In this document: in pieces, positions 1 through 18,444 of the stretch
Layout of the letters: each line of letters opens with the position of its first letter
How positions within the stretch are numbered: the first letter of the stretch is position 1
Virus record (IMG/VR): IMGVR_UViG_2778261639_000014
Location: 1 to 25,936 of that record
Strand: one strand, 5' to 3'
Source: a virus
Taxonomy: Duplodnaviria > Heunggongvirae > Uroviricota > Caudoviricetes
DNA length: 25,936 nt
The notes under the pieces: model-generated
The model's database searches: none
What the model saw: the letters and a program-made list of their open reading frames with translations, nothing else
Told to the model about the DNA's origin: nothing
Position numbers and translations under genes: made by a program

Positions 1-30
1 CACTGCAAACAGATCCATAGCACAGCTCTT

Positions 31-936
31 TCACTGCTTAGCCTCTCCACCAAGGGCATTTACCAGAGCATCAACCAGGCACGAAATTTCACTGGTCAAC
101 AGGAAGAAATCTACGTCCAGTCGCTGCGCAACATCTTCACTATCAATATCAGAGTTCTGCTCAAGCAATTCATCCGCAAATTTGACGCTGGTAAGGCTGA
201 AGTTATGGTCCAGTGTAAATTTAATGCGGTTCTGCCAGTCGAGTGCCAACTTAGTGACGAGCTTGCCAGCTTCCAGGTGTGTGGAAATTTCATCGCTTCC
301 CAAATCCTGCTTTTTCACTCGGGCAATACCGCCACCCTCAAGCACTGCCTTAAGTTCTGCCGCATCCCCCATTTGAAATCCCTGTGGAGCACTACCATCA
401 CGTACCCAGTTGGTCAGCGTTAATTCAATGGGATTTTCAACACTCAGGGGAACAACAGGAAGAGAACCCAGAGACTTACGCATAAGCGCGAGCATATCCT
501 CTGCCTGCCGCGCGCTGGCATTGATATAGATACGTTTAGTTGAACCGTCGTAGATCGCCTGGATAACAGAAAACTTTGAAAAAGCCCGTGGCAGAAGAGA
601 ATGCAGAACTTCGTCTTTCAGGGAGTCCTTCTCTGTTTTCTTCAGTTTACGCGCTTGTTCTTGCTCAAGTTTTTCAATTTTTTCTTGAATAGCTCGCTGG
701 ATAACCGGCGGGTGAAGAATTTTTGTTTCGCGCTTTGCTTCAACAAGGATAAAACCATTTCCATGCATAGCGATAACTTCGGAATTATCACCAAATGGCG
801 ATACAAAACCGAACTTGGCCATATCCTGACTACCGCATGGCGTGAAAAGGATCATTTTCTTTTTATCTTCTAAGTCGGTCAGATCCGCCTCACGAGAAAG
901 TTTATAAATAGTAATGTTTTTCCAGTGCTTAAACAT
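31..936 (-). CDS. rdgC: RdgC-family recombination-associated protein (P1 hrdC-like)
   Basis: Track ORF 31..957 (TTG). Full-length similarity to RdgC as recalled from E. coli (blocks [52 protein letters not shown]). First ATG is at 936 ([16 protein letters not shown]). P1 carries an RdgC homolog (hrdC). Confidence 0.85.
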
Positions 937-1213
937 GTTGTAACCCTTGAATATCAACCACAGAAAGCTCGTCTTTGTAGAAAAAGGCTAGGTTGTGGCA
1001 CCCCCTCGTTTGAGCGTATGAGCTGGGACCAATTTCGTTCTTCCAGACAAATGGCTTCAAATCCGTACGGCGAAGCATAAAAACGCGATTTGTTCCGCTC
1101 TGATTCCCAATGAGGCAAAAGCCTTCTTTCACCTTGATAGCCTGCAAGTTGTCGAGTTCACCGCTGGTTACACGGCTATCGAACTCTTTGCGGCTTATTA
1201 GCTCCATCTGCAT
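929..1213 (-). CDS. Hypothetical small protein co-transcribed upstream of rdgC (position of P1 cra)
   Basis: Track ORF 929..1285. Start placed at ATG 1213 (GGAG 9 nt upstream) because the track start abuts the operator at 1285-1301. Stop overlaps the rdgC start by 8 nt. No recognisable domain. Confidence 0.4.
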
Positions 1214-1284
1214 CTGACGACTCCAAACAAATGCCCATCGAAGGGCGATAGCTGAATGGTACCGAAAACACGACATAAAAAACA

Positions 1285-1301
1285 ATATTTATTAGAGCAA
1301 T
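1285..1301. promoter_or_regulatory. C1 repressor operator-like site
   Basis: ATATTTATTAGAGCAAT on the + strand is the reverse complement of the asymmetric P1 C1 operator consensus ATTGCTCTAATAAATTT with one mismatch. Lies in the divergent region between the rdgC operon and the + strand genes. Confidence 0.6.
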
Positions 1302-1381
1302 TATGCAATGGTTGACGCCATGTAGACCACAAGTAACCTAAGTTAAAATAAAGAAAACCAGAGCAAATTATTGGTGATGCC

Positions 1382-1666
1382 GTGGCAAGTATTGCAACAA
1401 AAGACAGCATTTGTTCGGGGCACGGAGGATTCCCATCCAGGCCTCCTGTAGAGAGTGAACCACTACTTAAAGTCAACGGAGTCGAAGTGTTAGTTGATGG
1501 TAAGCAATATGCACAGCATACCGATGGAAACAGTACGCACGGTGGGCAAGCTATATCAACCAGGGCATGGTTTACCGTCAATAGTAAAGGGATCGTATGC
1601 GTTGGTGACCCTGTTTCATGCGGATCTACCGTAGCGTCCGGAGACGGCCTGGTTCAGGTAAGTTAG
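1382..1666 (+). CDS. PAAR-like small protein (possible spike-tip protein)
   Basis: 94-aa ORF with GTG start. Repeated elements SGHGG, VNGVEV, THGG, VNSKGIVCVGDPVSCG resemble PAAR or gp5.4-type repeats. Stop is followed 8 nt later by the next gene with an AGGAG SD. Confidence 0.4.
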   Translation: MASIATKDSICSGHGGFPSRPPVESEPLLKVNGVEVLVDGKQYAQHTDGNSTHGGQAISTRAWFTVNSKGIVCVGDPVSCGSTVASGDGLVQVS

Positions 1667-1674
1667 GAGATATC

Positions 1675-2463
1675 ATGCTGGAAAAAGACTACCAGTTATC
1701 CGCATATAAAAAATTGGCCGCCGCCGGTGGGATGAAAACACCTGGTGCCATAACATCGGCACGAAACTGTGCTAACACAGCAAAACTGCTTGCAGAAGAA
1801 TTGACCGGATTAATTCTGGATACAATTGTCTATCCCGACACTATTACCTGCTATGTTTCAACGATAAGAACAACCACAACCGGCTTAACGAACATTGGAG
1901 AACTGGCAACTAAGCACGCGGACCTGTTGGCTGGTTATGCAGATCTGTCAATGCTGCTTCAACTCGATATTGGTTGGGATGTTTACTGCCGTGCTAATGA
2001 GCGAGAAGTTTCAGAACTGCCGATCTCTATTGCCATTGGTGATGTGAATATTACTAAATCGCTTGAGGACGCTGTTAACGCGCTTAATACATCAAGTTTA
2101 GTCGCTGCTATGGGGGAGATTAACCAGACCCTTAACACTGGCTCAGTAAGCTCGTCAGGCTCTGGTTCAGGCGGCGGCACTGCCACTCCCCCACCAACAC
2201 TAACAGAAGAGCAAATTGAATCTCTGAAAGTAGCAACTGAACAGTTTGGGGTTGTTTTCAACCAGACAACAGCGCCCACAACTGCGTTACAACAGCAGTA
2301 TGAACGAGCGAATGAAAGCGCCAACGTAGCCATAACTGCTTATGGACATGCTATCGGTACCGCGCTTGCGGAAGCATCAGCAAATAAGGCCAGCACAGCC
2401 AGCGCAGTTGCTGCTTTGGTTCCTGATTCTGTTCTTGATGAATTAAACAAAGCGGCACAGTAA
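1675..2463 (+). CDS. Hypothetical protein with low-complexity linker
   Basis: Track ORF 1618..2463; ATG 1675 is preceded by AGGAG. 262 aa with Ser/Gly/Thr/Pro-rich linker (SSSGSGSGGGTATPPPT) and Ala-rich C terminus. No catalytic motif recognised. Confidence 0.55.
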   Translation: MLEKDYQLSAYKKLAAAGGMKTPGAITSARNCANTAKLLAEELTGLILDTIVYPDTITCYVSTIRTTTTGLTNIGELATKHADLLAGYADLSMLLQLDIGWDVYCRANEREVSELPISIAIGDVNITKSLEDAVNALNTSSLVAAMGEINQTLNTGSVSSSGSGSGGGTATPPPTLTEEQIESLKVATEQFGVVFNQTTAPTTALQQQYERANESANVAITAYGHAIGTALAEASANKASTASAVAALVPDSVLDELNKAAQ

Positions 2464-2502
2464 CAAAGGACTTCATTGATAATTTTTCTTCAGGAGGAAG
2501 AC

Positions 2503-2919
2503 ATGTCATTCTTTTCTACGTTAAAAACAGCTTTGTCTTTGAAGGAGAAACTTGCTGCTACTGGTGTTCTTGTTCTGATTTGCGCACTTGTTGGTGCTGG
2601 GTTTGCATGGGAACGTCATCAGCTAAAGCAAGCCATAGAGAAAATTGGCAGTCTTGATCAGGCTGTTAAGGAACGTGATAAGTCAATAATGGATCTTAAC
2701 CAGACCATTGAGACGATGAACAAAGCAGAGCAACATTTTCACAGCCAGGAAGTGAAAAATGAATCAGAGCAAGCCAAGTATGCTGACAGGCAAATGGAAC
2801 GAAAAGCTGAAGTTCAGAAACAACTGGTTGCGGCGGGTAATGTTCGCCAGCGCATTCCTGCTGACACTCAGCGGTTGCTCCGGGAGTCGATCAGCGAATT
2901 TAACGCCGACAAAGGTTAA
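2503..2919 (+). CDS. i-spanin-like membrane protein (position of P1 ppfA)
   Basis: Track ORF 2476..2919; ATG 2503 preceded by AGGAGG. N-terminal transmembrane helix (LAATGVLVLICALVGAGFAW) followed by about 100 aa of charged coiled-coil-like sequence. Confidence 0.5.
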   Translation: MSFFSTLKTALSLKEKLAATGVLVLICALVGAGFAWERHQLKQAIEKIGSLDQAVKERDKSIMDLNQTIETMNKAEQHFHSQEVKNESEQAKYADRQMERKAEVQKQLVAAGNVRQRIPADTQRLLRESISEFNADKG

Positions 2920-3085
2920 CCACCCTGCCCCCAAAAGTGCATTTATGTGCAGGATGCCGGAGTTTAGCAGTGAATATTTTGATGATCTGCCAGCGTATAT
3001 CCTCGATACAGAAACGATGCTGATGGGGATTAACAGGAAGAATCGCAATGTTAATGATTACAACCGCGCTATCAGCGGTAACTAA
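2759..3085 (+). CDS. Lipoprotein overlapping the preceding gene, o-spanin-like (position of P1 mlp)
   Basis: ORF in another frame overlapping the last ~160 nt of the upstream gene. Lipobox L-S-G-C after a hydrophobic stretch (FASAFLLTLSGC). Start uncertain: 2759 has an AGGAAG SD, internal ATGs at 2780 and 2840. Confidence 0.5.
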   Translation: MNQSKPSMLTGKWNEKLKFRNNWLRRVMFASAFLLTLSGCSGSRSANLTPTKVNHPAPKSAFMCRMPEFSSEYFDDLPAYILDTETMLMGINRKNRNVNDYNRAISGN

Positions 3086-3096
3086 AAGGGATTTTT

Positions 3097-3489
3097 ATGT
3101 CTGATAAAGTAACAGTTAAGCAAACTATCAACAAAGCGACTTCAATCTACAAAATTGAGCACATCACTGTTGGCAAGCCAGGATCTGAACAATACCGTCA
3201 TGCTTTCGAGCTTGCCGCTCAGCTTGGTTTAAAACACCCGGATTGCATTGAGCATGTATTTCCGACCTATGCTGATGAGCAATGTACTCATGTTCTTACC
3301 GAAGAGGATTTTTTCAGCACTGAAGAACGAGAAGGCGTTGATCGCTGCATTGGTGTGATTTGCTCTTCAGTGAGTTATGAGTTATTCCCTAATGTCCATG
3401 AAAATGGTGGTATTGGATACCAATTCCTGTACGAAGGCGATGAGCTTAAATGTTATGAACATGGTCTTCTTATCGAAAGCGTAGAATAA
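3097..3489 (+). CDS. Hypothetical protein (position of P1 upfA)
   Basis: 130-aa ORF with AAGGGA SD. Acidic, Cys/His-containing, no recognised domain. Lies immediately upstream of the plasmid origin. Confidence 0.55.
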   Translation: MSDKVTVKQTINKATSIYKIEHITVGKPGSEQYRHAFELAAQLGLKHPDCIEHVFPTYADEQCTHVLTEEDFFSTEEREGVDRCIGVICSSVSYELFPNVHENGGIGYQFLYEGDELKCYEHGLLIESVE

Positions 3490-3502
3490 TACCCTTCCTT
3501 CC

Positions 3503-3528
3503 AACCGGCTATGTTGGCCGGTTTATTC
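3503..3528 (+). terminator. Intrinsic terminator-like hairpin
   Basis: Inverted repeat AACCGGC / GCCGGTT with 7-nt loop followed by TTTATT, starting 14 nt after the upstream stop codon. Confidence 0.45.
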
Positions 3529-3529
3529 A

Positions 3530-3760
3530 ACTTATCCACAGCATAGATCCAATAAACAGATCCCAAAGAGAACCTAGGAAGATCCAAAGAAGATCCCGGA
3601 TCGCTGTAAGCCGCGCCGTTCATGGCCTGAAACGGGATCAACATTGACTATACGCGATTTTATGTTGACTGTGTGCGATTTTATGTTGACTGCACGCGAT
3701 TTATTGTTGACTATACGCGACAGAAACGTTGACTGTACGCGATTTTAGAGCCTGAATATT
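3530..3760. other. Plasmid replication origin (P1 oriR-like)
   Basis: DnaA box TTATCCACA (3532-3540), five GATC sites in AGATCC heptamer-like repeats (3546-3602), then five direct iterons. Same layout as P1 oriR. Confidence 0.8.
3644..3747 (+). repeat. incC-like iteron array (5 direct repeats)
   Basis: Five copies of TTGACT-N4-GCGAT(TT) starting at 3644, 3665, 3686, 3707 and 3729 (21-22 bp period), immediately upstream of repA. Confidence 0.85.
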
Positions 3761-3823
3761 CACAGCTGTTGATAACAGTCATCTAAATTAACGCCAGGCC
3801 GCGCCACACATGGAGAAACCACG

Positions 3824-4708
3824 ATGCCGGAAGAAAGTAAAGGCTTCCTTAGCGTTGAAGAAGTTGCAGGAAATACAGGAGAAATCCACAGCCTGAAGCC
3901 CAATAACAACAGCACTATACAACCTATCGCTTTGTTGCGCTTAGGTGTGTTTGTGCCAACCTTAAAATCTACCAATGTGGCACTACGTCGCGGATCGTCA
4001 GTTACTACAAACACAACGAACGCAACCGAAGAACTATCAAGCCTTAAAATTGTTGAGCAGGAAGGCTATGAGGGAATTGAAATTCATGGCCCACGCCTGG
4101 ATATGGATACTGATTTTAAGGTGTGGGTGGGCATAACCTCCGCGTTGTTTGACTACGCACCTGATGATGACGGCATAATCACCCTGCCATTCTCCGAGTT
4201 TGCCGATCGATGCGGCTATCCACGTAAGCGCCTTTCAAAGGCGTTCCGTAAAAGTATTGATGACTCTCTGACACGCATTCAGCAGACAGTTGTCAAATTC
4301 CGCTTCCCGGCGGCAAAAGGTCATCTCAATAACATTAACGTCAACTTGTTGGCATATAGCAGCCTGAATACCGAGCTTGATGTTATCGAGATCCAGCCGC
4401 AGAAACAGCTATCTGAACTTTACTATGTTGACTATAAGCGAATCCTGAAGCTGAAGATGCTGGATAAGCTCGGGCGCAAAGAGACGGCCAAGGTGCTGTA
4501 TACATTCTTTGAGGCTCTACCCGCCAACCCGGCACCTGTCAGCATTGAGCGCCTTAGAGCAAGGCTTAATCTCAAATCATCCGTTAGCGTGCAAAATAGC
4601 GTTATCAGAAAAGCCATGAAAGATTTGGAAGCTATTGAATATCTTAAATTTTCAGAGATAAAAAACGGCAGGAAAATCGGCTTCCAGATTCATAAGCGCA
4701 ATCCATAA
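3824..4708 (+). CDS. repA: Iteron-binding replication initiator RepA (diverged P1 type)
   Basis: 294-aa ORF with GGAGAAA SD. Homologous to P1 RepA as recalled (VQP.AL.RLGVFVP, GPRLDMDTDFK.W.G, YTF.E.LP.NP.P.S, C-terminal HSRNP-like) but only about half the positions conserved. Flanked by iteron arrays. Confidence 0.85.
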   Translation: MPEESKGFLSVEEVAGNTGEIHSLKPNNNSTIQPIALLRLGVFVPTLKSTNVALRRGSSVTTNTTNATEELSSLKIVEQEGYEGIEIHGPRLDMDTDFKVWVGITSALFDYAPDDDGIITLPFSEFADRCGYPRKRLSKAFRKSIDDSLTRIQQTVVKFRFPAAKGHLNNINVNLLAYSSLNTELDVIEIQPQKQLSELYYVDYKRILKLKMLDKLGRKETAKVLYTFFEALPANPAPVSIERLRARLNLKSSVSVQNSVIRKAMKDLEAIEYLKFSEIKNGRKIGFQIHKRNP

Positions 4709-4710
4709 TA

Positions 4711-4965
4711 TTGACTATATGCGATAGCGAGAAGTTGACTATAGGCGACATTCGTTGACGCTGGTGGATTTTTGCTGGCGTCAATATTCTGCAAGTCGCT
4801 ATTGAGATGGCTTTTAGGGTCATTTCATCGCGTATAGTCAACGTTTCTCCCGACAATATCTTACATAGTCGATCTTTGGTGGAGTTAAATCGACTACAGT
4901 CAACTTTTGACTGTAGTCACATCGCGCATAGTCAACTATTCACATTAACCTTCGCGCATAGTCAA
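4711..4965. repeat. incA-like copy-control iteron array
   Basis: At least eight copies of the 14-bp iteron core (TTGACTATATGCGA, TTGACTATAGGCGA, TCGCGTATAGTCAA, TCGACTACAGTCAA, TTGACTGTAGTCAC, TCGCGCATAGTCAA x2) in both orientations downstream of repA. Confidence 0.8.
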
Positions 4966-5000
4966 CATTTGCGCGGTTCTCATCAAGCAGTGGTATTGAT

Positions 5001-5810
5001 ATGCAAGAAGAGAAACAACACTACCTCTACGTTCTGGTGCCGGAGAACGGAGATACTTTTAAAATCGGTATTTCATGTGGTCCATTGGCACGGTTTAAAG
5101 GGCTACAAGTGAGTCCCGATTTTGCGCTTTCACGGGTCTATCGTGGTACGCGTTTGGCAATGGTTAATCTTGAGCGGGCTTTACACGCAACCTTTTTCCC
5201 CTGGAATGCGCCGTGGGAGAAAAGCGCCGGTGGCGGGCATACTGAATGGTTTACACGAGAGTGTCTTGATAAGGTTTTGGCTCATATCGAATATCTAAAT
5301 GATATGTGGGGAGGGATTCTCGAGCGCATTAAGTCGAATGATTTACTTCAGCGTCCAGTAGATGCTGCTCGCTCTTTCGAAAAAGAGTTGGATGTTACTT
5401 CTATCGTGACTTTCAAAGATGACGCAGGAATGAGGGACGTGGCTTATGTCTCCATATCTGGCTATGAACCGGACGCGATCCGCGCTCAATGTGAATTGCT
5501 GAAAGCAGTGTTTATGCTTCGGACTAAATATCCCTGGGAGACAGGGCGGGTGTGCTTCCCTATGGAAGAGTTAACCGCCACCATTGATTCCCAGCTTTAC
5601 CACGATAATCCAGAGAAGTTTTTTAGCCTTTTAGCCGGTAATGGGCTTAACTGTGTGTCCGGGCTGGGGCGAAGTAGAATCCAACATGCCTCGCTCTTCG
5701 GTCCCTTCTTTTACGATCGACACGGGTACTTTGAGACTGAACTTCCGGCGCTTACGCGTGCTATAGATACTATCGATTTCGAACGATTATTCGCTGCTCT
5801 TAGCAAATAA
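5001..5810 (+). CDS. GIY-YIG-like (T5orf172/MUG113-type) domain protein
   Basis: 269 aa. N-terminal pattern YLYVLVPENGDTFKIGIS...R...GGGHTEWF fits the GIY-YIG-like T5orf172 fold. C-terminal ~170 aa unassigned. Has its own terminator. Confidence 0.6.
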   Translation: MQEEKQHYLYVLVPENGDTFKIGISCGPLARFKGLQVSPDFALSRVYRGTRLAMVNLERALHATFFPWNAPWEKSAGGGHTEWFTRECLDKVLAHIEYLNDMWGGILERIKSNDLLQRPVDAARSFEKELDVTSIVTFKDDAGMRDVAYVSISGYEPDAIRAQCELLKAVFMLRTKYPWETGRVCFPMEELTATIDSQLYHDNPEKFFSLLAGNGLNCVSGLGRSRIQHASLFGPFFYDRHGYFETELPALTRAIDTIDFERLFAALSK

Positions 5811-5817
5811 CACTGAT

Positions 5818-5838
5818 GCCCCTGAACGGGGCTTTTTT
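5818..5838 (+). terminator. Rho-independent terminator
   Basis: GCCCC-TGAAC-GGGGC hairpin followed by TTTTTT, 8 nt after the stop of the 5001..5810 gene. Confidence 0.7.
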
Positions 5839-5884
5839 GTGTCCTCCTTGTAACTCTCAATCGTGCAAAATGAACCAAACATGC

Positions 5885-5935
5885 AGAGAATGCTATGTAC
5901 AAGCATCTGTGCATACATTATTATTTTATGCAGCA
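5885..5935 (+). promoter_or_regulatory. par promoter/operator region
   Basis: AT-rich region 40-90 bp upstream of parA with two inverted repeats: ATGCT-N7-AGCAT (~5890-5906) and TGCATA-N11-TATGCA (~5910-5932). Consistent with an autoregulated par operator. Confidence 0.5.
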
Positions 5936-5978
5936 TTTTTAAGTAAATTCAAAAATACAGCATAAAGGATGACTTTCG

Positions 5979-7175
5979 ATGAGTGATTCCAGCCAGCTTC
6001 ACAAGGTTGCTCAAAGAGCAAACAGAATGCTCAATGTTCTGACTGAACAAGTACAGTTGCAAAAGGATGAGCTACACGCGAACGAGTTTTACCAGGTCTA
6101 TGCGAAAGCGGCACTGGCAAAATTGCCTCTACTGACTCGAGCGAACGTTGACTATGCCGTAAGTGAAATGGAAGAAAAGGGTTATGTTTTCGATAAACGC
6201 CCTGCTGGCTCTTCAATGAAATATGCGATGTCAATTCAGAACATCATTGACATATATGAACATCGCGGAGTGCCAAAATACCGGGATCGCTACAGCGAAG
6301 CGTATGTGATTTTCATCTCCAATCTTAAAGGCGGTGTGTCAAAAACTGTATCGACGGTTTCTCTGGCGCATGCAATGCGTGCCCACCCTCATCTTCTGAT
6401 GGAAGATTTAAGAATTCTGGTTATTGACCTTGATCCGCAATCTTCAGCAACGATGTTTTTAAGCCATAAACACTCTATTGGTATCGTAAACGCAACATCT
6501 GCACAGGCTATGTTGCAGAATGTAAGCCGTGAAGAGCTGTTAGAGGAGTTTATTGTTCCTTCTGTTGTACCTGGGGTTGACGTTATGCCTGCGTCGATTG
6601 ACGATGCCTTTATTGCATCCGATTGGAGAGAGCTGTGCAATGAGCATCTACCGGGTCAGAACATCCATGCTGTCCTGAAAGAAAATGTGATTGATAAGCT
6701 GAAGAGCGATTATGACTTTATCCTCGTTGATAGTGGTCCTCACCTTGACGCCTTCCTGAAAAATGCTTTGGCCTCGGCCAATATACTGTTTACACCTCTG
6801 CCGCCAGCAACTGTCGATTTCCACTCATCGCTTAAATACGTTGCCCGCCTTCCTGAGTTGGTAAAACTCATTTCGGATGAAGGCTGCGAGTGCCAGCTTG
6901 CGACTAACATTGGTTTTATGTCCAAGTTGAGTAACAAGGCAGATCATAAGTATTGCCATAGCCTGGCTAAAGAAGTGTTCGGTGGAGATATGCTCGATGT
7001 CGTCCTCCCTCGCCTTGACGGTTTTGAACGTTGCGGCGAGTCTTTTGACACTGTTATTTCAGCTAACCCGGCAACGTATGTTGGTAGTGCTGATGCATTG
7101 AAGAACGCGCGAATTGCCGCGGAAGATTTTGCTAAAGCAGTTTTTGACCGTATTGAATTTATCAGATCTAACTGA
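5979..7175 (+). CDS. parA: Partition ATPase ParA (type Ia, P1 type)
   Basis: 398 aa. Deviant Walker A KGGVSKT and ~100-aa N-terminal extension typical of P1 ParA / F SopA. Length and sequence match P1 ParA as recalled. Confidence 0.95.
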   Translation: MSDSSQLHKVAQRANRMLNVLTEQVQLQKDELHANEFYQVYAKAALAKLPLLTRANVDYAVSEMEEKGYVFDKRPAGSSMKYAMSIQNIIDIYEHRGVPKYRDRYSEAYVIFISNLKGGVSKTVSTVSLAHAMRAHPHLLMEDLRILVIDLDPQSSATMFLSHKHSIGIVNATSAQAMLQNVSREELLEEFIVPSVVPGVDVMPASIDDAFIASDWRELCNEHLPGQNIHAVLKENVIDKLKSDYDFILVDSGPHLDAFLKNALASANILFTPLPPATVDFHSSLKYVARLPELVKLISDEGCECQLATNIGFMSKLSNKADHKYCHSLAKEVFGGDMLDVVLPRLDGFERCGESFDTVISANPATYVGSADALKNARIAAEDFAKAVFDRIEFIRSN

Positions 7176-7191
7176 GGAGTAAGAAACCCCC

Positions 7192-8193
7192 ATGTCAAAG
7201 AAAAACAGACCAACAATTGGGCGAACCCTTAATCCTTCAATATTAAGCGGATTTGATAGTTCTTCAGCCTCTGGCGATCGAGTCGAGCAGGTATTCAAGT
7301 TATCAACTGGTCGCCAGGCCACATTTATTGAAGAGGTAATACCTCCGAACCAGGTAGAAAGCGATACCTTTGTTGATCAGCATAACAACGGGCGTGACCA
7401 GGCATCTCTTACGCCAAAATCATTAAAAAGTATCCGAAGCACTATTAAGCATCAGCAATTTTACCCTGCAATAGGTGTTAGACGGGCTACAGGGAAAATT
7501 GAAATTTTGGATGGTTCCCGGCGTCGAGCTTCTGCCATCTTAGAGAACGTAGGGTTGCGGGTTTTAGTCACGGACCAGGAGATCAGCGTTCAGGAAGCGC
7601 AAAATTTAGCGAAAGACGTTCAGACAGCATTGCAGCACAGCATTCGAGAAATAGGTCTGCGTTTGATGCGAATGAAAAATGATGGGATGAGTCAGAAGGA
7701 TATTGCAGCCAAAGAAGGGCTGTCTCAGGCGAAGGTCACGCGTGCTCTCCAGGCAGCGAGTGCTCCGGAAGAATTAGTCGCCCTTTTCCCTGTGCAGTCG
7801 GAATTAACCTTTTCGGACTACAAAACGCTTTGTGCTGTTGGCGACGAAATGGGGAACAAGAATTTAGAGTTTGATCAGCTTATTCAAAACATATCCCCGG
7901 AAATAAACGACATCTTATCCATTGAAGAAATGGCCGAAGATGAAGTTAAAAATAAAATCCTGCGCTTGATAACAAAGGAAGCCTCACTACTCACGGATAA
8001 AGGTTCTAAAGATAAGTCCGTAGTTACTGAATTATGGAAATTTGAGGACAAGGATCGCTTTGCAAGGAAGCGCGTGAAAGGCCGGGCATTTTCTTATGAG
8101 TTTAATCGACTTTCAAAAGAGCTACAGGAAGAACTCGACAGGATGATTGGGCATATCCTTAGAAAGAGCCTCGATAAAAAGCCGAAGCCTTAA
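7192..8193 (+). CDS. parB: Centromere-binding protein ParB (P1 type)
   Basis: 333 aa with GAGGAG SD. N terminus MSKKNRPTIGRTLNPS and length match P1 ParB as recalled. Directly followed by parS. Confidence 0.95.
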   Translation: MSKKNRPTIGRTLNPSILSGFDSSSASGDRVEQVFKLSTGRQATFIEEVIPPNQVESDTFVDQHNNGRDQASLTPKSLKSIRSTIKHQQFYPAIGVRRATGKIEILDGSRRRASAILENVGLRVLVTDQEISVQEAQNLAKDVQTALQHSIREIGLRLMRMKNDGMSQKDIAAKEGLSQAKVTRALQAASAPEELVALFPVQSELTFSDYKTLCAVGDEMGNKNLEFDQLIQNISPEINDILSIEEMAEDEVKNKILRLITKEASLLTDKGSKDKSVVTELWKFEDKDRFARKRVKGRAFSYEFNRLSKELQEELDRMIGHILRKSLDKKPKP

Positions 8194-8197
8194 ACTT

Positions 8198-8285
8198 TCG
8201 CCATTCAAATTTCACTATTAACATACTGTTTTTAAAGTAAATCCATCTAAAATTTCAAGGTGAAATCGCCACGATTTCACCTTGG
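8198..8285. other. parS: Partition site parS (P1 type)
   Basis: Box B TCGCCA (8198-8203), box A ATTTCAC (8209-8215), AT-rich ~45 bp spacer (IHF-bend-like), inverted box A GTGAAAT (8260-8266), box B TCGCCA (8266-8271), box A ATTTCAC (8274-8280). Confidence 0.85.
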
Positions 8286-8337
8286 ATTTTACCTTCCGCC
8301 CCTACTCCCGAAAAAAATAAAAAAATTGCTTGTCACG

Positions 8338-8368
8338 AGAAAGTCAACAAGTGACTTTCAATAAAATC
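8338..8368 (+). promoter_or_regulatory. Late (Lpa-dependent-type) promoter upstream of the gene-23-like operon
   Basis: Inverted repeat AAAGTCA-N5-TGACTTT followed 3 nt later by a -10 TAAAAT and no -35. Fits the organisation recalled for P1 late promoters. Confidence 0.5.
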
Positions 8369-8397
8369 TCTTCCGAAAAGGGATTCACACAAGTGCC

Positions 8398-10125
8398 TTG
8401 TGTTTAAGGAAGAGTAAATTGAGTAACTTACGCGAATACCAGAATCGTATTGCAGATATCGCAAAACGCTCTAAAGCTGTGCTTGGCTGGGCAAGCACTG
8501 CGCAGTTCGGTACTGATAACCAATTCATTAAAGATGATGCCGCGCGTGCCGCATCTATCCTTGAAGCTGCACGTAAAGACCCGGTTTTTGCGGGTATCTC
8601 TGATAATGCCACCGCTCAAATCGCTACAGCGTGGGCAAGTGCACTGGCTGACTACGCCGCAGCACATAAATCTATGCCGCGTCCGGAAATTCTGGCCTCC
8701 TGCCACCAGACGCTGGAAAACTGCCTGATTGAGTCCACCCGCAACAGCATGGATGCCACTAATAAAGCGATGCTGGAATCCGTCGCAGCAGAGATGATGA
8801 GCGTTTCTGACGGTGTTATGCGTCTGCCTTTATTCCTCGCGATGATCCTGCCTGTTCAGTTGGGGGCAGCTACCGCTGATGCGTGTACCTTCATTCCGGT
8901 TACGCGTGACCAGTCCGACATCTATGAAGTCTTTAACGTGGCAGGTTCCTCTTTTGGTTCTTATGCTGCTGGTGATGTTCTGGACATGCAATCCGTCGGT
9001 GTGTACAGCCAGTTACGCCGCCGCTATGTGCTGGTGGCAAGCTCCGATGGCACCAGCAAAACCGCAACCTTCAAGATGGAAGACTTCGAAGGCCAGAATG
9101 TACCAATCCGAAAAGGTCGCACTAACATCTACGTTAACCGTATTAAGTCTGTTGTTGATAACGGTTCCGGCAGCCTACTTCACTCGTTTACTAATGCTGC
9201 TGGTGAGCAAATCACTGTTACTTGCTCTCTGAACTACAACATTGGTCAGATTGCCCTGTCGTTCTCCAAAGCGCCGGATAAAGGCACTGAGATCGCAATT
9301 GAGACGGAAATCAATATTGAAGCCGCTCCTGAGCTGATCCCGCTGATCAACCACGAAATGAAGAAATACACCCTGTTCCCAAGCCAGTTCGTTATCGCGG
9401 CTGAGCACACGGTACAGGCGGCGTATGAAGCACAGCGTGAATTTGGTCTGGACCTGGGTTCCCTACAGTTCCGCACCCTGAAAGAATACCTGTCCCATGA
9501 ACAGGATATGTTGCGTCTCCGCATCATGATCTGGCGTACTCTTGCGACCGACACCTTTGACATCGCTCTGCCGGTTAACCAGTCCTTTGATGTATGGGCA
9601 ACCATCATTCGTGGCAAATTCCAGACTGTATATCGCGACATTATTGAGCGCGTTAAATCTTCTGGTGCGATGGGGATGTTTGCTGGTGCTGATGCAGCAT
9701 CTTTCTTCAAACAGTTGCCGAAGGATTTCTTCCAGCCAGCCGAAGACTATATCCAGACTCCGTATGTTCACTACATCGGTACCCTGTTCGGTAACGTGAA
9801 AGTGTACGAAGTACCTGCTGGTATTTGTAAGAACTTAACGACAGAGAACATTCAGTTCAGCTCGATGGATGTGCTGTGCTACGTCCGTGATGAAAATCCG
9901 GGTAAAGCAGGCTTCGTGACTGGTGATGCTGTCCCGGCCATCCCGTTCCAGCATCCGACCACTCCGGCGCTGGTCAACCGTACCACGCTGTGGGGTTCGG
10001 CTATCAACGATATGCACCCACGCAACGGCGCTGATTACTTCACTCGTGTAACGCTGACAATGGCCAAAAAAGGCGGGCTTAACTTTATAAGCGGCGACAC
10101 GATTGATGCCGGTGACTCTGAGTAA
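8398..10125 (+). CDS. Structural protein in the position of P1 gene 23 (putative major head protein)
   Basis: Track start TTG 8398; better start TTG 8419 with AAGGAAG SD. ~568 aa with strong codon bias. First gene after parS behind a late promoter. Assigned by position and expression signature, not by a verified motif. Confidence 0.6.
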   Translation: MCLRKSKLSNLREYQNRIADIAKRSKAVLGWASTAQFGTDNQFIKDDAARAASILEAARKDPVFAGISDNATAQIATAWASALADYAAAHKSMPRPEILASCHQTLENCLIESTRNSMDATNKAMLESVAAEMMSVSDGVMRLPLFLAMILPVQLGAATADACTFIPVTRDQSDIYEVFNVAGSSFGSYAAGDVLDMQSVGVYSQLRRRYVLVASSDGTSKTATFKMEDFEGQNVPIRKGRTNIYVNRIKSVVDNGSGSLLHSFTNAAGEQITVTCSLNYNIGQIALSFSKAPDKGTEIAIETEINIEAAPELIPLINHEMKKYTLFPSQFVIAAEHTVQAAYEAQREFGLDLGSLQFRTLKEYLSHEQDMLRLRIMIWRTLATDTFDIALPVNQSFDVWATIIRGKFQTVYRDIIERVKSSGAMGMFAGADAASFFKQLPKDFFQPAEDYIQTPYVHYIGTLFGNVKVYEVPAGICKNLTTENIQFSSMDVLCYVRDENPGKAGFVTGDAVPAIPFQHPTTPALVNRTTLWGSAINDMHPRNGADYFTRVTLTMAKKGGLNFISGDTIDAGDSE

Positions 10126-10151
10126 TCAGGGGAAGTTCTCCGTTTAACATA

Positions 10152-10170
10152 GCGCCCCCGTGCGGGGCGC
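10152..10170 (+). other. Intercistronic GC-rich hairpin without U-tract
   Basis: GCGCCCC-CGTGC-GGGGCGC between the gene-23-like and sheath genes. No T-run follows, so probably an RNA processing or stability element rather than a terminator. Confidence 0.4.
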
Positions 10171-10185
10171 ATAACAGGGAAAGTT

Positions 10186-11775
10186 ATGTCTCAATATTCA
10201 ATTCAACAGTCATTAGGTAATGCATCCGGCGTCGCTGTTAGCCCGATCAATGCCGATGCGACGTTATCTACCGGTGTTGCATTAAATAGCAGCTTGTGGG
10301 CTGGTATTGGCGTATTTGCGCGTGGCAAGCCGTTTACTGTTCTTGCGGTTACTGAGTCCAATTACGAAGATGTTCTCGGCGAACCGCTGAAGCCGTCTTC
10401 CGGCTCACAGTTCGAACCAATTCGCCATGTGTACGAAGCTATTCAGCAAACGTCTGGTTATGTTGTCCGTGCTGTTCCGGATGATGCGAAGTTCCCGATT
10501 ATTATGTTCGATGAATCAGGCGAACCGGCTTACAGTGCGTTGCCATACGGTTCTGAAATTGAACTTGATAGCGGCGAAGCCTTTGCTATCTACGTTGATG
10601 ATGGTGATCCGTGTATTTCACCTACCCGTGAGTTAACCATCGAAACGGCAACAGCGGACAGCGCAGGTAATGAACGCTTCCTCCTGAAACTGACCCAGAC
10701 GACTTCGCTCGGCGTGGTAACGACCCTGGAGACACACACTGTGTCTTTGGCGGAAGAAGCAAAAGATGACATGGGCCGCTTGTGTTATCTGCCTACGGCT
10801 CTGGAAGCCCGTTCTAAATATCTGCGCGCGGTTGTTAATGAAGAGCTGATTTCGACGGCGAAAGTAACAAATAAAAAATCGCTGGCGTTCACTGGCGGTA
10901 CCAACGGCGATCAGTCGAACATTTCCACTGCTGCTTACCTGCGCGCGGTGAAAGTGCTGAACAATGCGCCGTACATGTACACCGCTGTTCTCGGCCTGGG
11001 TTGCTATGACAATGCGGCGATCACTGCGTTAGGTAATATCTGTTCTGATCGCTTGATTGATGGCTTCTTTGATGTCAAACCGACATTGACGTACACGGAA
11101 GCGATCTCTGCTGTTGAAGATACCGGTTTACTTGGTACCGATTATGTAAGCTGTGCTGTCTATCATTTCCCGTTCTCCTGCAAAGACAAATGGACCCAAT
11201 CCCGCGTGGTCTTCGGTCTGTCTGGCGCGGCGTATGCGGCGAAAGCTCGTGGCGTCAAGAAAAACTCCGATGTCGGCGGTTGGCATTACTCACCGGCTGG
11301 TGAAGAACGTGCCGTCATTGCTCGTGCATCACTTCAACCGCTGTATCCGGAAGACACCCCGGACGAAGAAGCTATGGTCAAGGGCCGACTCAATAAAGTA
11401 TCTGTAGGTACTTCGGGCCAGATGATCATCGATGATGCTTTAACTTGCTGCACGCAGGACAACTATCTGCATTTCCAGCACGTCCCATCCCTGATGAATG
11501 CAATCAGCCGTTTCTTTGTCCAGTTAGCCCGACAGATGAAGCATAACCCGGACGGCATTACTGAGTCTGGCCTGACTAAAGGGATGACCAAACTTTTGGA
11601 TCGCTTTGTCGCCTCCGGCGCTCTGGTGGCTCCTCGTGATCCTGATGCTGACGGTACAGAACCGTATGTGCTGAAAGTTACGCAGGCGGAATTCGATAAA
11701 TGGGAAGTAGTCTGGGCCTGCTGCCCGACTGGCGTAGCCCGTCGTATCCAGGGCGTACCGCTGCTTATTAAGTAA
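10186..11775 (+). CDS. Contractile tail sheath protein (putative, P1 gene 22-like)
   Basis: 529 aa. Contains GGWHYSPAG, resembling the G-x-W-x-x-P-A-G motif I associate with sheath proteins. Size fits a ~57 kDa sheath. Confidence 0.65.
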   Translation: MSQYSIQQSLGNASGVAVSPINADATLSTGVALNSSLWAGIGVFARGKPFTVLAVTESNYEDVLGEPLKPSSGSQFEPIRHVYEAIQQTSGYVVRAVPDDAKFPIIMFDESGEPAYSALPYGSEIELDSGEAFAIYVDDGDPCISPTRELTIETATADSAGNERFLLKLTQTTSLGVVTTLETHTVSLAEEAKDDMGRLCYLPTALEARSKYLRAVVNEELISTAKVTNKKSLAFTGGTNGDQSNISTAAYLRAVKVLNNAPYMYTAVLGLGCYDNAAITALGNICSDRLIDGFFDVKPTLTYTEAISAVEDTGLLGTDYVSCAVYHFPFSCKDKWTQSRVVFGLSGAAYAAKARGVKKNSDVGGWHYSPAGEERAVIARASLQPLYPEDTPDEEAMVKGRLNKVSVGTSGQMIIDDALTCCTQDNYLHFQHVPSLMNAISRFFVQLARQMKHNPDGITESGLTKGMTKLLDRFVASGALVAPRDPDADGTEPYVLKVTQAEFDKWEVVWACCPTGVARRIQGVPLLIK

Positions 11776-11784
11776 GGAAATACA

Positions 11785-12600
11785 ATGAGCAAAAACTTTT
11801 TTCAATCCGGGGCATTTTTGGGGAATGGACTGTCCCGTTTCGCTTTGAACTCTGATCCTGTGCAGCTGATGGAGTCTGCCCGAGCAAGCGCTGAACCGCC
11901 AACAGATCCGGTTATTAATAATAATCCGGAACCGGCGGCACAGACTAACGATAACGTTCCATCTGCCCCGGCTCCTGAGCAAATCCTGGAAGGGAAAGAC
12001 GGTAAAGAATGGACCGTCGAACAGGCGCACCAGATGATTCTGGAAGCTGCAAATCGAAGTGCTATGCAGAATGCGTTGAGTGATGCGGCCGACGCCGTTT
12101 TCGCCTGGGCTGATAGCGGTGATCTGACTTTCGACTCCCTTGATGGTTTCGTTCAGGCTATCGCTGGTATCTCTGATGACGACGACTCCGAAGTTACAGA
12201 AGAACAGGACGATGCCTATAACGAAGCATGGGCAAATGTTGCTGACTTCCTCGCAGCATGCGGTGTAGATGATGACCTGATCGAAGCACTGGCTGACGAT
12301 GAAGACGACGACGCAGCTGCTGATGTTGGTGCCTCTATCGCTGGTTTAGATAGCGACGACCGCGACGAACTGGAAGCGGCGTTTGTTGTTGCTGGCACTT
12401 CTGATGAAATGCTGACTGAAGCATTTAAGAAGGTTGTTCGTAATGGTGAGATCAAACTCATCCGTAAACGCCTGCGTAAAAAACGTCTGACTGCGGCTCA
12501 AAAATCGGCGCTGAAAAAAGCGCGTCGAAAAGCCCAGACCGGCGCGGCAAAACTTGCCCGCAAAAAGTCAATGAAACTGCGCCGTAAGCGCCTTGGCTAA
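11785..12600 (+). CDS. Charge-segregated protein (acidic body, basic C-terminal tail)
   Basis: 271 aa with AAGGAAA SD. Long D/E-rich stretches (DDDDSEVTEEQDD, DDEDDDAAADV) and a K/R-rich final ~50 aa (KRLRKKRLTAAQKSALKKARRKAQTGAAKLARKKSMKLRRKRLG). No enzymatic motif. Confidence 0.6.
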   Translation: MSKNFFQSGAFLGNGLSRFALNSDPVQLMESARASAEPPTDPVINNNPEPAAQTNDNVPSAPAPEQILEGKDGKEWTVEQAHQMILEAANRSAMQNALSDAADAVFAWADSGDLTFDSLDGFVQAIAGISDDDDSEVTEEQDDAYNEAWANVADFLAACGVDDDLIEALADDEDDDAAADVGASIAGLDSDDRDELEAAFVVAGTSDEMLTEAFKKVVRNGEIKLIRKRLRKKRLTAAQKSALKKARRKAQTGAAKLARKKSMKLRRKRLG

Positions 12601-12635
12601 AGGAGGAGGCCGGAGAACTCCGGCCTTTAACTTGA

Positions 12636-13217
12636 ATGGCACCTATACCTTATGGGGTTTACAGCCAGGCTGACGGTGTATCGCCATTTCTGAAAGTTAC
12701 TTTAACGAACTCTCAGTACCAGGTTACCGGATATATCAGCCAGGGGGCAGCAATGAACATGGCCCAGAATTGGGAAGCGCCGTTTACCGGTATGTCCATG
12801 GGGTCTGTTGCTGGTGCTTTCAGTGGTTTTGCGCAGGTTGGTACTGAAACAACGTCGGTGGCCCGTTGGAACAGCTTAATGGTTTGGGAAGGGGGGACAC
12901 CGCCGACGTTCACGCTGCCCGTAACTTTCATTGCTTTGAACAATCCATTCATTGAAGTTTCAGGCGCTATCGCCGCGTTGACAGCCATGATTAGCCCGGA
13001 ACTAAAAGCGGCCAATGTTGGTGGTCGAATCCCGGAACGTGTGACGCTAAACATTGGTCGCCGGATCAACATCACCGATGTCGCTATCCAGGACTTAAGT
13101 TTTGATCTCGATGCGCCAAGGGACAGTAATGGATATTTCCTGAAAAACACCGTCAACCTCCAGTTGACCGGTTCTTCGATATATAACAGCTCCGATATTG
13201 TTCGGGCGTTCCAGTAA
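12636..13217 (+). CDS. Hypothetical late-operon protein (tail component candidate)
   Basis: 193-aa ORF preceded by a GGCCGGAG/CTCCGGCC hairpin. Gly/Ala/Thr-rich. No diagnostic motif. Confidence 0.5.
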   Translation: MAPIPYGVYSQADGVSPFLKVTLTNSQYQVTGYISQGAAMNMAQNWEAPFTGMSMGSVAGAFSGFAQVGTETTSVARWNSLMVWEGGTPPTFTLPVTFIALNNPFIEVSGAIAALTAMISPELKAANVGGRIPERVTLNIGRRINITDVAIQDLSFDLDAPRDSNGYFLKNTVNLQLTGSSIYNSSDIVRAFQ

Positions 13218-13228
13218 AAGGATTTTAT

Positions 13229-13738
13229 ATGGGGCACAATAACACTAAGGGAAACCGTAAATTTATTAAGGGCCGCTATACTGCCAACGCGGCCAAAGGC
13301 GAACGACTGGTATCTTCTGAATTCCAGCTCACTTTTGCAGGCCATGAAGATATCAGCGTACTGGTTCGCACGTCGCAAATTCCTGAAATGACCCGCGAGG
13401 ATGTGGAGGACTATGGTCCGAATGGTGTGAAGTTCAACCAGCACGGTCCAATTCGAAACTCTGGGGAAATCCAGGTCCAGTGCGTGGAGACTATCGAAGG
13501 CGATATTCTTCAGTTCATTAAGGATCGCATTGCGGCGAAGGACTATGTTGATATCACGATGGCTGCGACCCCTGAATCCAAATCTTCCGGGGTTAACGCT
13601 GTGACTAAAGCTGCTACAACAATTGAAATGTTGGACTGCAAAATCTACAGTGATGCAATCGACTTTAGTACCGAAGATGTGACTGCCGCTGTGCGCCCGT
13701 CACTTCGTATCGTCTACAACTGGATTGATTGGGATTAA
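13229..13738 (+). CDS. Tail tube protein candidate
   Basis: 169 aa with AAAGGA SD. Last gene of the sheath-containing operon, followed by a strong terminator. Size fits a myovirus tube protein; assigned by size and position only. Confidence 0.45.
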   Translation: MGHNNTKGNRKFIKGRYTANAAKGERLVSSEFQLTFAGHEDISVLVRTSQIPEMTREDVEDYGPNGVKFNQHGPIRNSGEIQVQCVETIEGDILQFIKDRIAAKDYVDITMAATPESKSSGVNAVTKAATTIEMLDCKIYSDAIDFSTEDVTAAVRPSLRIVYNWIDWD

Positions 13739-13757
13739 GAGCCATCCCTTGTATTTT

Positions 13758-13782
13758 AAAGCTCCTTCGGGAGCTTTTTTTA
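13758..13782 (+). terminator. Rho-independent terminator of the late structural operon
   Basis: AAAGCTCC-TTCG-GGAGCTTT hairpin followed by T7, 20 nt after the stop codon. Confidence 0.85.
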
Positions 13783-13909
13783 TAACTATTTTATATAAAA
13801 ATGCATCGATAACATTGTCTGGAGTTTTATGTTAGATTATTAATGTTCTAATAAACTACAATTATTGCGGTAGATGTTTGTGCCTGTACTGTTAAAGGGG
13901 GACTCTAAA

Positions 13910-14506
13910 ATGGCTGTGATTCCAATGTCGTACTCCCCGGGTACTGTCGCTCGTCGATTTTCGATCCTGGACGGAGTTACCATCCAGGGTGTGCTTTACC
14001 AGGTTATATGGGATTCCAAAACCCCATTTGCAGCTGTAATAGAGGCTGCGCCTTCTGTTATCGATGGTGATATGCGGCATAAGGTTGTCGCTACTCTTGA
14101 ACTTCAACGTCGCCCGCAGCTTGAAGGCGTACTGGTAAGGAAGTTCTGGGAGGATAGCGATGTTGGCCAGATTGAAGGTATCGTGGTTGATGGAACTGTC
14201 CGGGATGTCGGTTTAGCTACTTTTGTTTACGAAACCGTAGCCTCAAAAGCTGGTGTTGTTTTGCTCAGTGATAATGAGCAATACGAAGGTGGAAAAGCTC
14301 TTTGGCAACATATCGCCCGTCGCTCTTCCGAGCTAAAAGTGTTTATCCTCGACACCGATGCTGCTCAGTATTACCCGTTTGACGGCGAACGTGTTTGCTA
14401 TGACGGGAAAAGTATTCCTGAATCCGAGATATGGAGTGAACATCCGGATCGAAGTAAGCATGGGGTTGTTCTTGTCGCAGAATCCATAACTGGAAAGGCG
14501 GCATAG
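13910..14506 (+). CDS. Hypothetical protein (orphan gene with its own promoter)
   Basis: Track ORF 13874..14506; ATG 13910 preceded by AAAGGGGGA. 198 aa. Preceded by a ~100-bp AT-rich promoter-like region. No recognisable domain. Confidence 0.55.
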   Translation: MAVIPMSYSPGTVARRFSILDGVTIQGVLYQVIWDSKTPFAAVIEAAPSVIDGDMRHKVVATLELQRRPQLEGVLVRKFWEDSDVGQIEGIVVDGTVRDVGLATFVYETVASKAGVVLLSDNEQYEGGKALWQHIARRSSELKVFILDTDAAQYYPFDGERVCYDGKSIPESEIWSEHPDRSKHGVVLVAESITGKAA

Positions 14507-14688
14507 CAGTAAAAAATTCCTTGCTCCTTAAAAGGGGAGAGGGTTAATCTACGTATGCTAAGCATAGGTATGGCCCCGGTTAATGTTAAGCGTTGTGCGG
14601 GACGCATAATGTTTACTGGGGCTTTCTTCTATCTGCTTTTCGGGGAATGCCTGAAGCAGATAGCCTCAAGCACACCGCAGCGGGTGTA

Positions 14689-14934
14689 TCAATGTCTGGC
14701 TTTTTTTCTATAGAAATCACCTGGAAGGGTGAATATCCACATCAGAAGAAATGTTGCAGCAAACATGATCCCTAATGGCCAGACCGCGCCAAAGAAAATC
14801 CATACTAAGATCTCCTCTGCTCGTTCTTTGCGGTCGATATCGACAAGCATTTTTCGGCTGATCATGTATACACAGAAGCCAATACAAACATATCCTGCAA
14901 AAGCGATCGCTAACTGTAAAAAATCAGATTGCAT
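14689..14934 (-). CDS. Small two-helix membrane protein
   Basis: Track ORF 14689..15015; ATG at 14934 preceded by GAGG. 81 aa with two hydrophobic helices (LQLAIAFAGYVCIGFCVYMI; ILVWIFFGAVWPLGIMFAATFLLMWIF) and a basic C terminus. Confidence 0.5.
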   Translation of the reverse strand: MQSDFLQLAIAFAGYVCIGFCVYMISRKMLVDIDRKERAEEILVWIFFGAVWPLGIMFAATFLLMWIFTLPGDFYRKKARH

Positions 14935-14964
14935 CTCCGACCTCAAACTGAAAACGCCAGGTGA

Positions 14965-14981: not shown

Positions 14982-14984
14982 CTA

Positions 14985-15830: not shown

Positions 15831-15859
15831 TACAATGCTGGTGGTTCTTACTACGTCTG

Positions 15860-16818: not shown

Positions 16819-16823
16819 TTTTG

Positions 16824-18441: not shown

Positions 18442-18444
18442 TAT

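Follow-up and report, generated by a model that had tools for sequence, protein, structure and literature searches.

The ppfA/mlp locus and its surroundings

The window, by which we mean the whole stretch of 25,936 nucleotides that was analyzed, carries two overlapping genes next to a plasmid replication origin. On the basis of sequence and gene order, these genes can be assigned with essentially complete confidence as ppfA and mlp of a P1-like phage-plasmid (genus Punavirus). The features of the locus, each with the basis for its assignment, are listed here.

1382–1666, + strand: upfC, gene for a PAAR-motif protein that probably opens the rightward string containing ppfA and mlp (phrog_281 'PAAR motif', 2.1e-29; P1 annotation)
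1618–2463, + strand: upfB, directly upstream of ppfA, no assigned function (phrog_1559, 1.1e-135; P1 annotation)
2492–2497, + strand: Shine-Dalgarno sequence of ppfA, AGGAGG, 5 nt before the ATG (read from the sequence)
2503–2919, + strand: ppfA, predicted i-spanin of 138 aa with type II inner-membrane topology (open reading frame, PHROG match, SpaninDataBase)
2551–2607, + strand: predicted transmembrane helix of PpfA, residues 17–35 (Kyte-Doolittle; inside AlphaFold2 helix 13–110)
2747–2752, + strand: Shine-Dalgarno-like AGGAAG, 6 nt before the mlp ATG (read from the sequence; AGGAGG in four divergent lineages)
2759–3085, + strand: mlp, predicted o-spanin, a 108-aa lipoprotein precursor in the +1 frame relative to ppfA (open reading frame, PHROG and BLASTP matches)
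2828–2830, + strand: alternative TTG start at Mlp codon 24 (Leu24), which would give a canonical 16-residue signal peptide
2867–2878, + strand: Mlp lipobox L-S-G-C, with Cys40 as the predicted lipidation site (regular expression plus hydrophobicity check)
2948–2950, + strand: Mlp Cys64, sole periplasmic cysteine of the PpfA/Mlp pair (invariant in six lineages)
3097–3489, + strand: upfA, last gene before oriR, no assigned function (phrog_1453, 7.3e-61; P1 annotation)
3534–3745, + strand: oriR core, a DnaA-box-like site and the incC iterons, given as context outside the spanin unit (repeats; P1 annotation)

The gene order is that of P1, running upfC, upfB, ppfA/mlp, upfA, oriR (DnaA site, iterons), repA, parA, and parB. 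The DnaA-box-like site lies at about 3534 and the iterons at 3644–3745, with a direct-repeat family at 3639–3745 spaced by 21–22 bp and repA at 3824–4708. To the left of upfC, again as in P1, are hrdC and uhr on the opposite strand and then the C1 operator Odmt, and the position of upfC is itself conserved in divergent lineages. The initial annotation placed the pair beside oriR rather than with holin or endolysin genes, and this description is accurate: upfA alone separates mlp from oriR, and no holin or endolysin gene lies near ppfA/mlp. A location within a lysis cassette is typical of spanins and does not define them. In P1, the lysis genes lyz and lydA/B belong to other operons that are unlinked to ppfA/mlp (Bednarek 2022). 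On a larger scale, positions 1–18058 of the window are collinear with P1 from approximately 66.4 to 48.5 kb, and the match then jumps to P1 93.2–85.2 kb. The window differs from P1 in this junction, at about 18.06–18.45 kb, and in an extra open reading frame between incA and parA.

A megablast search with the locus returned 97–98% nucleotide identity to RCS47, P1, P7, and SJ46, and other P1-like phages also match. PpfA is the same as P1 PpfA (NC_005856) apart from a two-residue AD deletion, and Mlp is 98% identical to its P1 counterpart, with the substitutions N4S and V32A. A single 6-nt indel within the overlap accounts for the missing AD of PpfA and TP of Mlp, and it closes neither frame. 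The P1 genes, ppfA (gp064) and mlp (gp063), have the same overlap, frame, lipobox, and neighbors (upfC, upfB, upfA, oriR, and repA) as the genes described here. It is this near-identical sequence, together with synteny beside oriR and repA, that marks the pair as Punavirus orthologues. Both ppfA and mlp belong to the 21 extremely conserved genes found across 77 P1-like phage-plasmids.

Two predicted envelope proteins in overlapping frames

PpfA is predicted to have the single N-terminal transmembrane domain and periplasmic C-terminus expected of an i-spanin. Residues 17–35, LAATGVLVLICALVGAGFA, make up the most hydrophobic 19-residue window of the protein (mean Kyte-Doolittle 2.35), the flank on the N-terminal side has a net charge of +2, and 102 residues lie on the C-terminal side of the helix. 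The Shine-Dalgarno site given above for ppfA is also the one marked in the SpaninDataBase row for P1 (Kongari 2018, PMC6139136). An AlphaFold2 model, built on 17 homologues and of modest confidence (mean pLDDT only 65.9), places a helix at residues 13–110, a break at 111–119, and a second helix at 120–136. The initial annotation had described a protein with an N-terminal transmembrane helix and a periplasmic coiled coil. The transmembrane helix is present. As for the rest of that description, a helical ectodomain is supported because the model is nearly all helix, and a coiled coil is weakly supported: the best heptad window, residues 38–65, has hydrophobic residues at seven of its eight a/d positions, a statistically weak value reached by 138 of 2000 shuffles. 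When the PpfA profile was searched against PDB sequences, the single match was weak and irrelevant.

The second protein, Mlp, is encoded across the 3′ end of ppfA, as the initial annotation had also noticed, and its frame is +1. The two genes overlap by 161 nt (2759–2919) and mlp extends 166 nt past the ppfA stop, which is the overlapped gene arrangement looked for in a two-component spanin. A lipoprotein signal was found at the annotated mlp start by a regular expression and a hydrophobicity check. The signal region, VMFASAFLLTLSG, ends at Cys40, whose codon (2876–2878) comes after the hydrophobic run VMFASAFLLTL and is followed by Ser at the +2 position. The predicted mature protein has 69 aa, including five Pro and one further Cys. 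By the same check, Mlp has the properties of an o-spanin, namely, a small lipoprotein with a lipobox Cys and without Asp at +2. The periplasmic cysteine expected for a homotypic disulfide is supplied by the invariant Cys64 of Mlp, and PpfA has none. When a simple lipoprotein-signal filter was applied to all six frames of the 25.9-kb window, mlp was the sole open reading frame to pass. Synonymous resampling of ppfA gave an alternative-frame lipoprotein-like open reading frame in 0 of 5000 trials. Because mlp is unique in the window and no resampled ppfA reproduced it, the overlapped lipoprotein frame is not attributable to chance.

Comparison with divergent relatives provided evidence that both frames are maintained. 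Five lineages with 59–64% amino-acid identity in PpfA keep the synteny and the overlapped +1 lipoprotein frame; those recovered include Cronobacter phage JK004, Salmonella contigs, and a contig with a protein named for Klebsiella aerogenes. The lipoboxes of the homologues read LSAC, LNGC, or LNAC, with the lipobox Cys invariant in six lineages, and Cys64 and the motif AFMCRMPE...YFDDLPAYI...INRKNRN are likewise invariant in all six. Across the five lineages, third-position divergence in ppfA is 0.474 outside the overlap, 0.465 across the first 26 mlp codons, and 0.183 from the hydrophobic core of Mlp onward, through the lipobox and the mature part. In the region that belongs to mlp alone, divergence at the wobble position is 0.464 versus 0.15 and 0.12 at the other two codon positions. 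This distribution of divergence over codon positions, along with an indel that keeps both frames open, indicates that both frames are under purifying selection. Mlp codons 1–26 show no constraint in their own frame, and as judged by the alignments the dual-frame constraint starts at approximately Mlp residue 24–27. The point of onset bears on which start codon Mlp uses.

We favor ATG 2759 as the predicted translation start of Mlp. This ATG and its Shine-Dalgarno sequence are kept in every lineage, and they are kept via differing ppfA codon pairs (AAT-GAA, GAT-GAA, GAT-GCA, and AAT-GAC). The 26 residues that this start adds are unconstrained in sequence and yet are basic in all six lineages. 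A start at codon 24, TTG 2828, is a conceivable alternative. The signal peptide annotated from ATG 2759 is unusually long at 39 residues, Met1 of P2 LysC aligns with Mlp Leu24 in BLASTP, and, of four divergent lineages, three have ATG at the codon that matches Mlp codon 24, where it stands without a Shine-Dalgarno sequence. Two other candidates were considered and rejected. ATG 2780 is unconserved, and ATG 2840 is unconserved and would leave no charged n-region.

The spanin assignment and its rivals

Taken together, ppfA and mlp very probably form an overlapped two-component spanin that acts in lysis. In a mechanism modeled on lambda Rz/Rz1, PpfA would be inserted into the inner membrane via its N-terminal helix, so that a helical domain of roughly 100 residues reaches into the periplasm. 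Mlp would undergo export and lipidation at Cys40 and, as a Ser at +2 does not act as a retention signal, would be sorted to the outer membrane. PpfA and Mlp would then bind through their conserved C-terminal parts to give a complex that spans the periplasm, and Cys64 of Mlp would form a homotypic disulfide, a bond argued to be universal among two-component spanins (Kongari et al. 2018, PMC6139136). After removal of the peptidoglycan by Lyz, the endolysin of P1, collapse of the complexes would be expected to bring about fusion of the two membranes and complete lysis. Localization of the two proteins, complex formation, membrane fusion, and the timing of expression are all assigned here by analogy.

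Summer et al. were reportedly the first, in 2007, to propose the P1 pair as equivalents of Rz/Rz1. The SpaninDataBase carries the entry 'P1, NC_005856.1, ovl', with gp064 as the overlapped i-spanin (140 aa, periplasmic domain of 104 aa, zero periplasmic Cys) and gp063 as the overlapped o-spanin (110 aa, 71 aa when mature, one periplasmic Cys).(Kongari 2018, PMC6139136) The same entry gives LipoP cleavage at 39|40 and flags the 39-aa signal of gp063 as 'Too long signal sequence' (Kongari 2018, PMC6139136). Among database labels, RefSeq calls mlp 'Rz-like spanin', and several GenBank records use Rz/Rz1 or 'Rz-like spanin'. According to Bednarek 2022, the spanin genes of P1 overlap and sit in 'yet another unlinked operon', and the paper describes the assignment as a prediction that is experimentally unverified. 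The two spanin labels are swapped in that paper; the sequences make PpfA the i-spanin and Mlp the o-spanin. The initial annotation had read the locus as an overlapped two-component spanin and had suggested that spanins of the P1 family may be encoded away from the lysis cassette. The first reading, as a predicted function, is supported by the SpaninDataBase, RefSeq, and probable homology to LysB/LysC, and the suggestion agrees with the unlinked operon of Bednarek 2022. Both the observation and the idea of a location away from the cassette were previously in the literature, and with the SpaninDataBase, RefSeq, and Bednarek 2022 already classing the P1 pair as a spanin, ours is a rediscovery. 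The finding changes little about a pair whose cataloguing as the P1 spanin dates to 2007–2018 and which RefSeq labels as such. Its residual value lies in P1 being a model phage with an unusually dispersed lysis system in which the role of the spanin is still predicted.

Published essentiality data and the promoters of the region both have to be reconciled with this assignment. CRISPRi in P1 gave efficiencies of plating (EOP) of 1.3/1.2 for ppfA and 0.24/0.19 for mlp, and both genes were called non-essential; in the same study, lambda Rz was essential with one of two systems (PMC10695390). Spanins are dispensable for lysis in shaken laboratory cultures (Bednarek 2022). Because spanin defects are conditional, non-essentiality by CRISPRi does not refute a spanin role. 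With respect to expression, the P1 annotation gives ppfA only predicted sigma-70 promoters (P1ppfA and P2ppfA) and no late promoter in the region, and scanning for generic sigma-70 promoters gave none immediately before ppfA. We derived a late-promoter box from LP23, AAGTGACTT-N4-TAAAAT, which is present at window position 8349. A copy with one mismatch lies at 1331–1349, upstream of upfC, where P1 has three mismatches. At this site, the box is missing from the divergent lineages, in which a −10-like TAnAAT is conserved. With three mismatches in P1 and no conservation in divergent lineages, the box upstream of upfC was rejected as evidence for late expression. The main text of two P1 RNA-seq papers does not mention ppfA, mlp, upfA, or upfB.

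A different role for intact, expressed genes is one way to read these data. The pair could be an envelope module that serves the plasmid-prophage state, for example, in exclusion, and that is expressed constitutively from sigma-70 promoters with no part in lysis. The predicted promoters are of the sigma-70 type only, the pair adjoins oriR, repA, and par, and Lobocka named the genes in neutral terms ('possible periplasmic function' and 'membrane lipoprotein precursor' in the P1 GenBank notes). Both genes are also non-essential for plaques by CRISPRi (PMC10695390). Against this reading, the probably homologous LysB and LysC genes lie in the lysis cassette of P2, the topology and overlapped arrangement are exactly spanin-like, and the neighboring gene upfC has a product resembling a PAAR spike tip, a function of virions and not of plasmids. 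Lambda spanin mutants, too, are said to have given normal plaques under ordinary conditions in the work of Summer in 2007. Bednarek 2022 makes the same point about lambda spanin mutants, and non-essentiality is what would be expected of a spanin. We regard a dedicated envelope module as quite unlikely. A reading in which the genes are intact and no longer used receives a similarly low estimate. Here, the spanin genes would be a relic within a rearranged, possibly defective P1-like plasmid that may be without other lysis genes. Collinearity with P1 does break after window position 18058, with the jump to P1 93.2–85.2 kb, deletion derivatives of P1-like plasmids exist (the 54.8-kb IncY plasmid NZ_CP031232 is an example), and frameshifted ppfA-mlp fusions occur in public assemblies, as putative A4 alleles of the A5 run at window positions 2755–2759 (read sets ERR14116099 and ERR4565369). 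In this window, however, both frames are intact and nearly identical to those of functional P1, and the window spans just 25.9 kb of the element.

The reading in which mlp is a chance open frame in and beyond ppfA, with no protein made from it, is effectively refuted. It draws on the omission of mlp from most automatic annotations, which for most P1-like plasmids call ppfA only and so miss mlp, and on the first 26 mlp codons, which evolve as unconstrained in their own frame. Set against these points are the third-position bias of divergence in the mlp-only region (0.464 versus 0.15 and 0.12), the fall of the ppfA wobble rate to 0.183 over the Mlp core, and the invariance of the lipobox Cys, Cys64, and the C-terminal motif in lineages at 59–64% identity. 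The ATG and Shine-Dalgarno sequence are retained through differing ppfA codons, none of the 5000 resamplings reproduces such an open reading frame, and Mlp has a probable homologue in P2 LysC. A further reading accepts the pair as a spanin and modifies its importance: P1-type phages may depend less on it for outer-membrane disruption than lambda does, or the o-spanin may be unusually regulated. The CRISPRi result, the lack of a convincing Lpa-dependent late promoter, the oriR neighborhood, and the N-terminal extension of Mlp leave room for this reading, which we consider unlikely. If true, the extension could serve to slow or adjust how Mlp is exported and lipidated, or the pair could be made in the lysogen with a non-lysis role.

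Relation to the spanins of P2, lambda, and T4

By family matching, and for Mlp also by pairwise matching, the P1 pair is probably a remote homologue of LysB/LysC of P2, the prototype overlapped spanin. This assignment follows from shared PHROG families and from the BLASTP match between Mlp and LysC. PpfA matches phrog_89 'Rz-like spanin' at 2.1e-24 and P2 LysB matches it at 5.8e-61. Mlp matches phrog_30284 at 8.9e-74 and phrog_456 at 2.5e-5, and P2 LysC matches the same two families with the strengths reversed (phrog_456 at 1.7e-31 and phrog_30284 at 5.4e-4). BLASTP aligns Mlp with LysC at 37% identity over 68 aa (E 2e-6). Pairwise, PpfA and LysB have no significant similarity by BLASTP (E 62) or by hhalign (probability 0.8%, a shallow profile against a single sequence). 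Scores against the curated NCBIfam models fall below the cut-offs, with 18.7 bits for PpfA on the LysB model TIGR03495 (cut-off 92.75) and 14.8 bits for Mlp on the LysC model NF038368 (cut-off 27). A Pfam scan of PpfA and Mlp gave sub-threshold coiled-coil noise and no Rz match at E ≤0.1.

The P2 and P1 pairs have the same design. In both, the o-spanin gene uses the +1 frame, with its start within the i-spanin gene and its end past the 3′ end of that gene, and the proteins differ little in length (141 and 96 aa for LysB and LysC versus 138 and 108 aa here). The P2 genes are inside the lysis cassette, Y-K-lysA-lysB-lysC, whereas no holin or endolysin gene is linked to the P1-type pair, and the Mlp open reading frame has a 23-residue N-terminal extension that is absent from P2 LysC.

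The relationship to lambda Rz/Rz1, the only spanin studied mechanistically, is one of design and presumed role. Neither PpfA nor Mlp matches the lambda families phrog_13 and phrog_3198, and BLASTP gives E 0.2, so the pair was not placed in the Rz/Rz1 family. The lambda proteins share with the P1 pair the topology of a type II inner-membrane protein and an outer-membrane lipoprotein, the +1 frame of the o-spanin gene, and a periplasmic cysteine, and their role in lysis is presumed to be the same. The lambda genes differ in that Rz1 is wholly embedded in Rz, whereas ppfA and mlp merely overlap, and in that Rz/Rz1 directly follow S and R, whereas ppfA/mlp adjoin oriR. In addition, Rz has periplasmic cysteines and PpfA has none. 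For the position of the genes, the closer parallel comes from T4, in which PseT.3/PseT.2 form a separated spanin whose genes, like those of P1, lie apart from the genes for holin and endolysin, although the T4 genes are non-overlapping (Kongari 2018). With T4 as an unlinked precedent, linkage to a lysis cassette is not required of spanins.

Naming and annotation of the overlapping genes

In the introduction of Bednarek et al. 2022 (PMC9025707), ppfA is termed the o-spanin and mlp the i-spanin. The sequence features and SpaninDataBase, the spanin catalogue of Kongari et al. 2018, show that these labels are reversed and that ppfA is the i-spanin and mlp the o-spanin. Automatic annotation of P1-like plasmids usually leaves mlp uncalled even though ppfA is called, as observed in plasmid NZ_CP031232.1 (L008, 2503-3100) and among protein database matches. 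Where mlp is called by such annotation, only C-terminal fragments of 46-65 aa are recorded. Annotation outside curated phage records thus systematically under-represents the o-spanin gene. Relative to P1, a 6-nt indel lies within the ppfA/mlp overlap (window 2900-2910 versus P1 locus L001 3601-3612), with AD lost from PpfA, TP lost from Mlp, and both frames open.

Fused PpfA-Mlp reading frames

Public assemblies also contain ORFs of 193-195 aa in which the loss of 1 nt joins PpfA to Mlp. The commonest site of this loss is a short homopolymer:

2755-2759, A5 run, its last base being the A of the mlp ATG

Shortening of this run from A5 to A4 is found on two sequence backgrounds, one being the related loci L012-L017, all six of which come from one sequencing project, and the other being L018, a window-like contig from ERR4565369 that is 99.2% identical to the window. 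The remaining fusions carry a frameshift at about PpfA residue 97, 109, 127, or 139. Either the fusion ORFs are homopolymer or assembly errors, or they reflect recurrent inactivation of the spanins in plasmid prophages.

A separate feature of L018 concerns its dmt methyltransferase product, which reaches 1095 aa (L018 1-532, the gene running off the end) and has weak Hint_2 and faint LAGLIDADG_3 matches, suggesting an intein-like insertion in the methyltransferase. This dmt gene falls outside the window.

Genes and control sequences flanking the spanin pair

Upstream of the pair, the following features were recorded, with LP23, the P1 late promoter, listed for comparison:

1285-1301, C1 operator, adjoining the promoter-like sequence upstream of upfC
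1331-1349, + strand, promoter-like sequence AAGTAACCT-aagt-TAAAAT, upstream of upfC
1382-1666, + strand, upfC, PAAR-motif protein (phrog_281, 2.1e-29)
8349-8367, LP23, AAGTGACTT-tcaa-TAAAAT

The upfC product resembles the T4 gp5.4 spike tip, and upfC belongs to the same string of genes as the spanin pair, which places a virion component alongside lysis proteins next to the plasmid origin. The promoter-like sequence matches LP23 in geometry with one mismatch. Its equivalent in P1 itself has three mismatches, and the box is absent in more distant lineages; only a -10-like hexamer and the neighboring C1 operator are kept around this position.

Downstream of mlp, the divergent Salmonella lineages L003 and L007 (6600-6966) carry a Phage_gp49_66 (PF13876) gene rather than a UpfA homologue, and no gene is called there in the related locus L005 (6424-6977). 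The gene content separating the spanin pair from oriR therefore varies.

Departures of the window from P1

Collinearity with P1 does not extend across the whole window. Its positions 1-18058 correspond to descending P1 coordinates, about 66.4 to 48.5 kb (hrdC ... kilA, ant1), and the sequence from about 18448 corresponds to P1 93.2 to 85.2 kb, likewise descending (pacB, pacA, lpa, pdcB, doc/phd ...). The P1 matches jump at this junction (about 18059-18447), which leaves out the c1 repressor gene along with about 49 kb of P1 sequence (cre, res/mod, dar, tail genes, sim, c4). RCS47 matches both flanks, with window 17895-18055 as the common segment. One possibility is that the element carrying the window derives from P1 by recombination or deletion.

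A further ORF lies in the plasmid maintenance region:

5001-5810, + strand, extra ORF of 269 aa between the incA iterons and parA (phrog_2876 match, 1.8e-192)

In L012 and L018, the copy of this ORF bears the label T5orf172 (weak), and the ORF may represent an endonuclease-like mobile insertion into this region. Both P1 and plasmid NZ_CP031232 are without it, and the repA-parA gap measures 1271 nt in the window versus 558 nt in those two.
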